From positions 88,660,001 through 88,724,000 of the forward strand of contig OX597816.1 of the NCBI GenBank assembly GCA_951406725.2: DNA of 64,000 bases. Reading direction: 5' to 3'. Below the pieces are notes generated by a model that searched no databases, was not told the origin of the DNA, and worked only from the letters and a program-made list of their open reading frames with translations. A program made the translations under genes and the position numbers. Each line of letters starts with the position of its first letter. Within the stretch, counting starts at the first letter, position 1. The DNA comes from Octopus vulgaris (Eukaryota). Of the stretch, positions 24,595 through 63,619 are shown piece by piece.

Positions 24595-24596
24595 AG

Positions 24597-24765
24597 GAAT
24601 AATTCACAAAAAAAAAACAAAAGACGAAGACAGGTGGTGTAGACAACAAACAGATGTTTTAGTTTACCGATCAGGAAGTGAAAAAGTATTTAACGTTTCG
24701 AGCCTACGCTCTTCCACAGAAAGGAAAACAGAAAGAAGCGACAAAATAAAGAATGTGTAGTGGCT
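24597..24765 (-). mobile_element. Short hammerhead-like repeat family C, copy 1
   Basis: acaaaagacgaagacaggtggtgt...acgtttcgagcctacgctcttccacagaaagg aligns with 62842-63000; flanked by TG/TA repeats. Confidence 0.75.
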
Positions 24766-26859
24766 ATATATATATATATATATATATGCTTGTGTGTGTG
24801 TGTGTGTGTGTATTATTTTGATACAAGAAAATTATTGCCAATGCATCCGAAGTTTCGGCCAGCTAAGTCATCGTCATATAATTCGGTTTTATCATAACTG
24901 AACATAATCAGCTAAAAAAAAAAGCAACCAATCGCACACAAAGAAATGAAAGGCCTCTATGGAATTGATTTTCTTGCTAGAAATAACAGAGACGTGTTTT
25001 CAAATAATAGGGCGTCGGTTAAAATCTATTGGGGACTTATTAAAGAACGTAATATTGGGTAGACAAAAATCAATAAATAATTGAGGTGGTCACGGCTGGA
25101 AACCATTTTGATAACAGAACTGCTCGATCAGAGTTTAACTGAAATATAAACAACAACAAAAACAGCAACAGAAAATAGAGTTAGCATTAAAACCTTTTAG
25201 AGACAGAGATTTATAGAAATATCCTTTTCTTTTTAGTTTAATCATGGAATCTCCTGTTGCACGAACTTGCCATGTGTGAGTGAGTGTAAATACTTTGATT
25301 GGACGCTTTTTCGTCTGATATAGTACGCCATGATGGTGTTTATCACTCCTTTGGGGCTTTGTGATGGGAAGGTAGACTCATGGTAATGAATCGGAACACG
25401 CGATATACAAGATAAAAGAAAGACAGGGCGGAGAAGCAAAAGAAGACGAAGACGACCACAACGAAGAGGAAGGAGAAGAAGAAGAAGAAGAAGAAGAAGA
25501 AGAAGAAGAAGAGAAAGAAGAAGAACAACAACAACAACAGCAACAACAACAACAACAAAAACAACAACAAAAGGGGAAGAAGAGGTAGACAAGAAGACAA
25601 AAGGAAAGAGAAAAGAAAGCAAAAACGATAAATTAAAAAGACGGGAAGAGAAGTAAAATAAAAAGAATACAACACAAACAATAGCAACATCAACAAGAAA
25701 AACGACTATGGCGGAGAGAACATGAAAGAAGAAACAAGTGGAAATAGCGATAAGGCATTACATTTCTTGCTATTCCATCAAGATACAGCTAAACTGAAGA
25801 ATGCTTGGCGATAACGCCAAGCATTCTTCTGTTAGTAGAGGGAAATGTCTGTTATTGTGTTACATACTTGATAAAGTTTAAATTAAGCACTTTTCCTCGC
25901 GTAGTTTTTGCACATTATAACTTCTGTAGTTTTGCTCTGAGTTATCCCTAACATAGCAGTCTTATGTTCGTTATATTCATAGTATATATGTGGGACTAGA
26001 CTACTGAATATCTGGTTATTCTTTTAAGATAGTATGCTGTGTTTTGAGTGCAATTAGGCCGTTACTACTAGCGATTCAAGACTTGCATAGACCTTGCAAA
26101 AGTTTTCTTTATAGTCATGGATGCCGTCCTTTAATTGTGGCCAATCCTACTGTGAGAACACATATAACAAATCCTTCCAAACTCATCTAATCTTTTACTT
26201 CAGAAGCTGTGCATTTACCACGCCACAACCTATCATGTTTATTCTTTCATTAAGTCATAGGATTTGGTGAGAGAAAATTTCGTTAGTTTTAAAGCTTTTT
26301 TTCCCCCACTTTTTTGGAGAAAGGCAGCTGCCATGGTGCTCTTCAGGGCTTGTGTGACTGGCGGAATACAAAGTCAGCCGTTGTATGGTTTCCTACAAAA
26401 AGCCACATGGTGTGTTTAGACAGTGAAGTTCAGATAGATTTCTCGGACTTAAATTAAGTCGAACGCAGCTGTTCTAGGTATCATTAATAGACTGACTGTT
26501 AAGAGTTAAGACTCCAATGTTAATATAATTTCTAAAAACAAAATACGGTACCATATTCAAGAGTATTTCACTTCTGCTTTTTTTTTATTATTTGTCATTG
26601 ATTACAGAATCGGCAGCTCCAGCTATGTGCCCAAACAAACGGGCAGCATTTGTGTGAACCTTTGCTCTATTATCACACCAGTCATGACTGCTGTTCAATG
26701 GATATTTTAAACTGAAACAGACAGTTGCATTTCAAAGTTAACAAAGAGACTGGAAGATGGATTACTGTGTGTGGGAAAAGTAGGCATGACATTTGATAAT
26801 ATTCAAAATGAGAATATCAAAATTAGCAGTATTTGATACTAGTAAGACATGATTAAAAT

Positions 26860-35299: not shown

Positions 35300-35305
<6 letters not shown>

Positions 35306-35490
35306 CTCAAAAGCACGAAGAACAAACACAAAAAAATCAACAGCGCGAGGGCGTAGTATATGTAGAGTATTAGCAGGCGCTCAGGGAAGGAAGAAAAGGT
35401 AGCTTTTACGTTTTGAGCAAAGCTCTTCACCAGAAACAAGAGATGGAAGAAAGTCCAAGAGAAAAGGATGACGGATGAGTGATCCACATA
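35300..35490 (-). mobile_element. Hammerhead-like repeat family C relative (diverged)
   Basis: acgaagaacaaac...gcgctcagggaagg...cttttacgttttgagcaaagctcttcaccagaaac has the same layout as 24597 and 62842. Confidence 0.6.
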
Positions 35491-36062
35491 TGATTACATT
35501 TTGAAATATTTATAGAGAGAGAGACAGAGAAAAAACAGTGAGAGACTATCAATACGGGAAAAATGCTTCATAAGCTCTCTGGCGGCATCTCAGGCAAATA
35601 AATTATGTTAGATTAGTGAACAACTCCTAGTAATCTTTTGGTAGGGTTGCAACTTATGGTTTATCACAATTCTATATTGTAAATCCGTGAATGGGAGCCA
35701 GATAAATTGGATTTTACAGAGTAATATATAAGAGACAAGTTTAAAATATTAGTCATTACATATGATTCCTTTATTGGGGCAAGTCTGGCTTACAGCTGTT
35801 TCCAGCAGTCATTATAGGTACATTTCTGATAGGTTTACTCAATTGGTCTATTGATCAAATGAGGTAAATTGAACGAGCTAAGAAAATGAATGCTACTTTC
35901 GACAGATGTAATAAGAAACGGAGTACTTAAGGAATGGCTATTGCATGAAGAGTGCGGGGTAGGACAGGGATGATCAAGTAGATAAAAGAACGGGGGAAGA
36001 GAGGTTACAGGGGGTGGGAATATGTAAGAGAATGTCAGAAGTAGTAGTACTACAAGTACTAC

Positions 36063-62483: not shown

Positions 62484-62841
62484 TCTTACTCTTTTACTCT
62501 TTTACTTGTTTCAGTCATTTGACTGCGGCCATGCAGGAGCACCGCCTTTAGTCGAGCAACTCGACCCCGGGACTTATTCTTTTGTAAGTCCAGTACTTAT
62601 TCTATCGGTCTCATTTGCCGAACCGCTTAGTGACGGGGACAGAAACACACCAGCATCGGTTGTCAAGCAATGCTAGGAGGACAAAGACAGACACACAAAC
62701 ATATACACACACATACATATATATACATATATACGACAGGCTTCTTTCAGTTTCCGTCTACCAAGTCCACTCACAAGGCATTGGTCGGCCCGGGGCTATA
62801 GCAGAAGACACTTGCCCAAGATGCCACGCAGTGGGATTGAA
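62484..62841 (-). mobile_element. SINE family B copy
   Basis: (ctctttta)n tail, tgtttcagtcatttgactgcggcc...ctttcagtttccgtctacc...cacttgcccaagatgccacgcagtgggattgaa; truncated in the tRNA head. Confidence 0.88.
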
Positions 62842-63005
62842 TTTACGAAAATAAACAAAAGACGAAAGCAGCTGGTGTACAAAAAAACAAATGTATTAGT
62901 ATAGCGCTCATGAATAGAAAAAATCTTTTACGTTTCGAGCCTACACTCTTCTACAGAAAGGTACACAGAAAAAAACAAGGAGAGAAACAAGGAGAGAGAA
63001 AAAAA
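62842..63005 (-). mobile_element. Hammerhead-like repeat family C, copy 2
   Basis: Aligns with 24597-24765; motif RC cttt-CTGTAGA-a-gagt gtag gctc-GAAA-cg-TA-aaag at 62925-62960. Confidence 0.75.
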
Positions 63006-63619
63006 GGATGACAGAATAACACATGTGTGTGCGTTTGTGAGTATCGGTTGAATTAAGTTAAAACATAGTTTGGTTTTCACGTTTTATTTTTATTTTAGTA
63101 ATATAATGATTCCATTGAGCGAACATATAGAAACATGTGGTTAGAAAATGTTTCTAATTTTCCCTTTCCACAAACTACATGACACAAGTGAGGTTGGAAG
63201 AAGATAAAAGAAAAACGATTTATTAAAATGTTCAAACCTGTTCTGAACGGAAATAACAATAATATAACAATTAGTTAATGATGAGGATTAAAAAATATCT
63301 TCAACATATGAATATAAACATATTACTGAATATCGGTACGCCCGGTAAATAATGACGTTTAAGGTGCATGTGGATTGGTCAAATCCGTATTCCAAAAATT
63401 CAGCTTGTTGGAGCGTTCTAAGAGGTACTGCAGTTGTCAAGAACTCAACTGTCAGTTAAATGCATTTTGAAATTTGATGATTACTACGAACGTGTGAAAG
63501 CGCTAATTGAACTTTATGAGCATTACAAAATATTTTTTAACGTTAAAATATAATAAAAACATGAAAACCAAACCATGATATATTATTCTATACACATTCA
63601 CACAAAATCGGTAATGTAT

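Follow-up and report, generated by a model that had tools for sequence, protein, structure and literature searches.

A minimal hammerhead motif with uridine at core position 6 in a young Penelope-like element of Octopus vulgaris

Truncated repeat copies in the window and their parent element

The window analysed here is a stretch of 64,000 nucleotides from Octopus vulgaris (contig OX597816.1, positions 88,660,001 to 88,724,000 of the forward strand). The following repeat copies lie in it:

62838..63006, minus strand: copy 1, the 5'-truncated 3' end (part of the pLTR) of a Penelope-like element with U6, subfamily A7/A17
62925..62960, minus strand: minimal type-I hammerhead-like motif of copy 1, CUUU-CUGUAGA-A-GAGU-GUAG-GCUC-GAAA-CG-UA-AAAG
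24595..24766, minus strand: copy 2, 5'-truncated, U6 lineage, subfamily G7/U17, with the motif at 24688-24723
35302..35506, minus strand: copy 3, decayed and assigned to an A6 sister family, with the motif at 35403-35437 carrying a private G6 and AAAA
23648..23736, minus strand: a fourth copy of the oldest-type subfamily, truncated within helix II and without the CUG core

The initial annotation had placed three motifs on the minus strand, and inspection of the sequence confirms them at 62925, 24688 and 35403. On the minus strand the motif of copy 1 begins with the helix I arm CUUU (62960-62957) and CUGUAGA (62956-62950), in which U6 is nucleotide 62953. An extra A precedes helix II, which is formed by GAGU and GCUC around the loop GUAG and contains a change private to this copy; GAAA, CG, the cleavage-site bases U16.1 (62930) and A17 (62929) and the 3' helix I arm AAAG (62928-62925) follow. 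The interval 62925-62960 spans exactly from one helix I arm to the other, and the scissile bond is predicted between 62929 and 62928. Copy 2, which is flanked by TA and CA repeats, has CUGUGGA at 24719, the triplet GUU and a helix I of only 3 bp owing to a private G-to-U change. Copy 3 has CUGGUGA at 35433 and AAAA in place of GAAA.

Copy 1 is 92–94% identical to other copies of its family. Its last ~10 nt and the TA tail are replaced by a second, different abundant repeat at 62500-62838 on the minus strand, which we take to be SINE-like.

A 27-nt stretch of the motif has 9,600 exact copies in the genome compared with none for the reversed pattern, and a structure scanner blind to position 6 recovers copy 1 as well as copy 2 of the window, with no match when 80 other loci are locally shuffled three times. 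Thus, the motif is not a product of chance. In an Rfam scan no hammerhead family is found among the best 150 of 295 matches, which are mostly microsatellite-driven miRNA matches.

The window repeats of the U6 lineage, each lacking its 5' part, are remnants of the 3' end of a Penelope-like element (PLE) of ~4.47 kb that is young, very abundant and autonomous. No pieces of the PLE open reading frame (ORF) were found within the window. The full unit has one long open frame comprising an RT, a CX4CX2C linker and, C-terminally, a GIY-YIG, followed by a C/U-rich 3' UTR of 0.4–1 kb, the motif and then ~110 nt to an internal UAUAU. Across the family the 3' ends are constant and pass into (TA)n, the 5' ends are variable, and long copies extend through the C/U-rich UTR into the GIY-YIG reading frame. 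In tandem units the sequence passes the internal UUAUAUAUUA into the 5' UTR; insertions stop there, ~110 nt past the GUH site.

These repeats had been described as a short (~165–190 bp) non-coding mobile family, a description that has to be given up in favour of truncated ends of an autonomous RT/GIY-YIG element. The variable 5' ends and the long copies that reach the ORF speak against a retrozyme or another short non-autonomous unit: no non-coding unit of 170–400 nt was found that has either tandem monomers or a defined 5' end, the features by which non-LTR retrozymes are recognized. Metazoan non-LTR retrozymes are likewise short type-I hammerhead repeats tied to PLEs, but they are described as non-coding tandem monomers of 170–400 nt (PMC7229834; bioRxiv 10.64898/2026.07.22.740005, in the parts consulted), whereas the octopus unit is a 4.47-kb coding element whose short copies are truncations. 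The copies appear short because most 5' ends lie 44–88 nt before the core: this is the case at 23 of 30 loci chosen regardless of length (two of which overlap), with four of the remaining ends closer to the core and three more than 200 nt upstream. The cluster of 5' ends (L031-L060) often falls at a GCCATG..ATCG stretch, and it may reflect pausing of the RT or transcription that starts within the repeat.

Searching the genome for the end of the ORF gave 18,487 first-look candidates, 150 of which were scored, many with equal score. At 30 loci picked by protein alone, the motif lies downstream in range in 25 cases, all with U6, and is absent from this range in five. Twenty long loci with open frames of 825–1,211 codons contain 32 motifs, each of which reads CUGUUGA, and at 11 of these loci two or three motifs ~4.5 kb apart are found on both sides of the ORF. 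Loci L124 and L133 are 99.8% identical over 5,749 bp. The lineage is recently active and ORF-intact.

The protein has a Pfam match to RVT_1 at 415–604 (E 1e-7, above the cut-off) and a weak one to GIY-YIG at 835–868 (E 0.007, below the cut-off). The CCHH residues of the endonuclease can be read in the sequence (NIIYCISCSLC..YIGQT..RF.EH..HF), and the linker before it, CSRPRCRTC, fits CX2-5CxxC. In the parts of Craig et al. (2021, PMC8557442) consulted, RT, CX2-5CxxC linker and GIY-YIG at the C-terminus, the latter with CCHH residues, characterize the Neptune/Nematis-type EN+ PLEs, with which the octopus element also has partial tandems, inverted 5'-truncated partners and microsatellite targets in common. 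Partial tandem (pLTR) structure, 5' truncation and a microsatellite target are all present in the octopus element. We classify it by layout as a putative Neptune-type EN+ PLE, the layout being that of Neptune and Nematis alike. Homologs of its protein at 40–59% are mostly unnamed. Penelope families with recent activity are listed in a published annotation of octopus repeats, and the words "hammerhead", "ribozyme" and "Neptune" do not occur in the part of that annotation's main text consulted (PMC13282606).

Some further features of the copies were noted. Head-to-head inverted pairs of truncated copies occur at L037:1360-1530 and L073:1350-1530, as described for PLE insertions. One young subfamily (L094-L121; e.g., L099:2680-2790) has a tandem duplication of ~35 nt just before its 3' end. 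On the minus strand of L089, another PLE family is represented by a GIY-YIG frame with a CX4CX2C linker, ~750–1360 nt downstream of the motif.

Position 6 across the genome and in related families

A6 of the sequence CUGANGA is a near-invariant base of the hammerhead core. The octopus motif has all core bases of the minimal type-I hammerheads of PLEs (C3 U4 G5 N7 G8 A9 / G12 A13 A14 A15.1 / U16.1 H17) except A6. When position 6 was tabulated in the whole genome (2.8 Gb, 227 contigs) among exact matches with the remainder of the motif fixed, the 16,332 matches divided into 15,730 with U, 180 with A and 422 with C or G. With U6 in 96.3% of the matches, the proposal that U6 is the state of the family is borne out, and for copies 1 and 2 mere decay from a CUGAUGA consensus is excluded by these counts.

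Other minimal-hammerhead families of the same genome, counted with a looser pattern, have A at position 6 in 5,970 matches and U in 68. The A-U exchange is 1.1% both ways, in the U6 lineage as well as in the A6 families, so that A6 in the U6 lineage stands at the level of post-insertion mutation. In a tree of 185 copies, many nodes of which are weakly supported, the sampled A6 copies are scattered over every subfamily. Most of the 5,970 A6 matches are supplied by a canonical family (L473-L492) of the form CUGAUGA-A-GGCUG-GAGGGUAUAU-CAGCC-GAAA-CGU, which is a natural A6 control within the same genome.

Two further possibilities were considered and rejected. The first is an ancestral A6 subfamily: among the first 100 of 884 matches of the oldest subfamily, position 6 is U in 82, C in 9, A in 8 and G in 1, according to which U6 was already fixed there, a small A6 subset being possible. 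The second is a shifted register, in which U6 would be position 3 of a UNGAAGA core. The register is fixed by homology to the A6 sister families, and helix II would shrink to 2 bp in the shifted one.

The tree places copy 3 in an A6 sister clade. A search with its helix II gave 579 matches, and A6 is present in all 30 inspected. This sister family has the core CUGAAGA or CUGACGA, the loop UUU and the helix I GUUU/AAAC. Of the three copies put forward as examples of the variant core, copies 1 and 2 therefore stand and copy 3 does not: it has G6, belongs to another family, and for it the consensus is the canonical one. Seen against its relatives, its G6 and AAAA are taken to be decay.

A young sister family (L288-L317 and L423-L452) combines C4 with A6 in the core CCGACGA and has the loop UCC and the helix I GUUU/AAAC. 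Its divergence is 3.0% and it has 3,310 exact anchor matches. Its long copies enter more than 0.8 kb of CA-rich sequence, within which no ORF was reached. C4 is another rate-lowering core change. The CCGACGA core also occurs in the metagenome loci L345, L389 and L400.

In 80 metagenome loci encoding related proteins, the scanner blind to position 6 found 18 motif matches, 17 of them with A6, and none in three shuffles of these loci. The exception is the following contig:

L408:1502-1548, on a metagenome contig: minimal hammerhead that follows an open Neptune-like ORF

Its motif lies ~230 nt after the stop of the open RT-GIY-YIG frame, and its core (U3 C4 G5 U6 A7 A8 A9) unites the U3-A8 covariation with C4 and U6. 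This single contig possibly represents a second, independent origin of U6, or a decayed copy.

Stem-III-less hammerheads of PLEs that act as dimers were reportedly described by Lunse, Weinberg and Breaker in RNA Biol. The octopus motif has the same architecture and fits the same dimer model (review PMC6765202, in part). Minimal type-I hammerheads of metazoan PLEs were defined by Cervera and De la Pena in 2014, who give low activity for the dimers (PMC4209133, in the parts consulted); an example is the motif of the Acropora digitifera Neptune element, GCU-CUGACGAA-GGGC-UAAC-GCUC-GAAA-CG-UC-AGC. The octopus motif has in common with these the pLTR position, the extra base between 9 and 10.1, the G10.1-C11.1 pair, the short helix I, the palindromic ACGU without a helix III of its own, and the occurrence mostly as solo truncated copies. 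The alignment rows compared from that paper, however, all have A6 (consensus CUGANGAH) and the octopus family has U6; the sole core variant named in the consulted part is U3-A8. A U6 family would be missed by the descriptor used there because it fixes A6, and searches with a fixed CUGANGA miss at least ~16,000 motifs in this one genome. Canonical hammerheads are given as universal outside Naiad/Chlamys in the consulted part of PMC8557442, against which the octopus lineage has a non-canonical core.

A natural change of position 6 is known from Bcep176, a hammerhead with A6C that is slow but not dead, with a kobs below 0.1/min (Perreault 2011, PMC3088659, in part). The natural A6C core cleaves at 0.004–0.05/min in Mg2+ and at ~0.3/min in Mn2+; placed into a fast ribozyme, A6C lowers the rate from 0.3/min to 3.55e-6/min at 0.3 mM Mg2+, a loss of ~10^5-fold (Naghdi 2020, PMC7151607, in the parts consulted). 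The likeness is a natural core change at position 6, with slow cleavage of Bcep176 in Mg2+. Nevertheless, the base in Bcep176 is C and not U, and it is a single intergenic phage ribozyme with full helices, whereas the octopus motif depends on a dimer and belongs to a high-copy active retroelement. A search by titles and abstract openings found no report of a U6 PLE hammerhead; the sequences of Lunse et al. might contain such cores. On the sequence evidence, U6 adds a new variant to the cores known from PLE minimal hammerheads; it is present family-wide and in the youngest full-length elements. A near-invariant core base has thus been changed and carried through several successive parent elements of an ORF-intact lineage.

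Conservation and covariation of the motif

Two positions of the hammerhead core are free: N7 can be any base, and H17 anything except G. The U6 copies form a ladder of subfamilies with a median divergence from their own majority of 10.7% for the old, 2.4% for the middle and 1.5% for the young ones. When the majority states of old (30 copies) and young (50 motifs) subfamilies are compared, 1 of 23 motif columns differs, counting the columns not fixed by the query, versus 31 of 96 columns of the downstream flank (Fisher P=0.004). Across the three age groups only N7 and H17 vary, that is, variation is confined to the two positions that a hammerhead leaves free. N7 is U, C, G or A depending on the subfamily, whereas H17 is A (~9,600) or U (4,668), with only 215 for G and C together and G under 1%. 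Only two or three parental changes underlie the absence of G17. From the conservation of the motif, the hammerhead is likely to be still under selection. The constancy of U6 does not by itself prove selection on U6, because the average flank column is also unchanged in about two thirds of cases.

The proposed arrangement A-GAGY-loop-GCUC-GAAA-CG-UH with a palindromic ACGU was found again throughout: helix II GAGC/GCUC, A9a, the palindrome (15.1–16.1) and the closure of helix II by G10.1-C11.1 are present in all five groups compared. The U6 lineage and the sister families have identical helix II stems and differ in loop II, and the outer pair of helix I is C-G in the former and G-C in the sister family, a two-sided change. 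Inside the U6 lineage no compensatory changes were found. In 16 family representatives from the genome and the metagenomes, 7 of 8 pairs show two-sided changes and 94.5% of the cells are paired, in a set that leans to structure as 10 of the 16 rows were picked by the pairing-based scanner. The covariation of helices I and II that had been demanded for a genuine hammerhead is thus seen among the representatives, the helix I change being the one case within the genome.

Cleavage, folding and possible roles of the motif

Since priming would lie 3' of the scissile bond, inserts beginning at this bond are expected from cut RNA. As the anchors used differ in length, the counts of 5' junctions are readable only for the absence of a large pile-up: for one U6 subfamily we estimate ~23 of ~3,500 copies at the GUA site (87 matches, of which 30 were inspected and 8 are true junctions, with one internal deletion left out), for the A6/C4 sister family ~21 of ~3,370 copies at the cleavage site (58 matches, of which 30 were inspected and 12 flagged, 11 being true junctions and one an internal deletion), and at two comparison sites, TA in loop II and a non-TA site, the junctions were true in 13 of 25 (14 flagged, one apparent internal deletion) and 10 of 25 cases. 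Neither the U6 subfamily nor the A6/C4 sister has 5' ends piled up at the cleavage site, and U6 and A6 therefore cannot be told apart by the footprint. At this site almost every template was intact or had been re-joined.

In 52-nt folds of old and young copies, as well as of L408, U4, G5 and U6 pair with G16.2, C15.2 and A15.1 (P >0.9). This rod pairing, which natural A6 copies from these subfamilies lack, adds ~2 kcal/mol to the cost of the active dimer. The median probability of the U6-A15.1 pairing is 0.94 in old, 0.45 in middle and 0.97 in young copies in these folds versus 0.03, 0.00 and 0.28 in 185-nt folds; the window copies do not adopt it (0.07 and 0.02). As the pairing depends on fold length, a rod lock by U6 was demoted to a weak idea.

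Taken with the literature, these data lead us to a preferred reading to which we give an even chance: the 3' repeat of a recently active autonomous PLE of Neptune type carries the motif as its minimal hammerhead, cleavage by which is predicted to be strongly slowed by the lineage-wide U6, and the rest of the motif is probably selected. U6 is an alteration of the parent elements, and the ribozyme is likely slowed rather than simply decayed. The endonuclease would nick (TA)n and the RT would prime at the internal UAUAU, copy back through the hammerhead and usually drop off 50–90 nt beyond, which would give the short copies. As priming would then be 3' of the scissile bond, no more than a stub of ~110 nt could be obtained from RNA that has been cut, so that a slow ribozyme would be of little cost to the element and may even help. 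U6 would abolish the contacts of A6, and its pairing with A15.1 may close the monomer over the ACGU palindrome that the active dimer requires. Rare cleavage would persist in a dimer of two tandem motifs, perhaps assisted by protein or Mn2+. In a pairwise mutant scan of another hammerhead, CUGA mutants had low activity and were not rescued (PMC9901934, in part). Given this low activity, the ~10^5-fold loss by A6C and the weak activity of PLE minimal hammerheads, U6 possibly means no cleavage at all.

A catalytically dead motif that is kept as a structure, either as an RT-positioning site near the priming site or as a palindromic RNA-RNA contact in the tandem transcript, is a real alternative, although we consider it less probable. 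Changes of A6 are strongly deleterious in tested hammerheads, more than 99% of the copies were copied through an intact GUH site, and inserts of more than one unit traverse this site twice. The motif is conserved relative to its flanks, and U6 closes the rod in short folds, as does the unrelated U6 core of L408. On the other hand, the rod is unstable in long folds, and the free positions are exactly N7 and H17, with no G17 subfamily having arisen although G17 would pair with C3 in the rod. Moreover, the A6/C4 sister is equally low in 5' ends at the site, and the missing footprint is thus not specific to U6.

More tentatively still, we suggest that the hammerhead of this PLE lineage has become an RNA handle that cuts either not at all or only under certain conditions, with the fold kept for the RT and the core shut by U6; a similar damping of the core might then have arisen again in the C4 sister and in the unrelated L408 (U3-C4-U6-A8). 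If so, the conserved job of PLE hammerheads would not be cleavage. The in vivo role of PLE hammerheads is called an open question in the consulted parts of PMC8557442 and PMC4209133. The octopus genome offers a natural experiment with U6, A6 and C4 cores in one scaffold with the same helix II, and the young full-length element is a system for asking whether cleavage, the fold or neither serves transposition.

We regard as unlikely a new U6 core with full activity, in which the change would be made up for by the extra A9a, the GUAG loop, a protein of the element or another metal. This is the most prolific lineage seen here, judged by its 18,487 first-look ORF-end candidates, and the natural C6 core is fast in Mn2+ (PMC7151607, in part). 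However, no second-site change accompanies U6, as helix II, A9a and the palindrome are the same as in the A6 sisters, no double mutant rescued CUGA changes in the consulted part of PMC9901934, and A6 is kept in 17 of the 18 motifs near related metagenome ORFs. Finally, that the window copies are decayed members of a canonical CUGANGA family, or the motif a neutral relic, holds for copy 35403 and could draw on the private changes in helix II of copy 1 and helix I of copy 2, but is very improbable given U6 in 96.3% of the exact matches and in each of the 32 motifs that the youngest long copies carry, and a motif far more conserved than its flanks.
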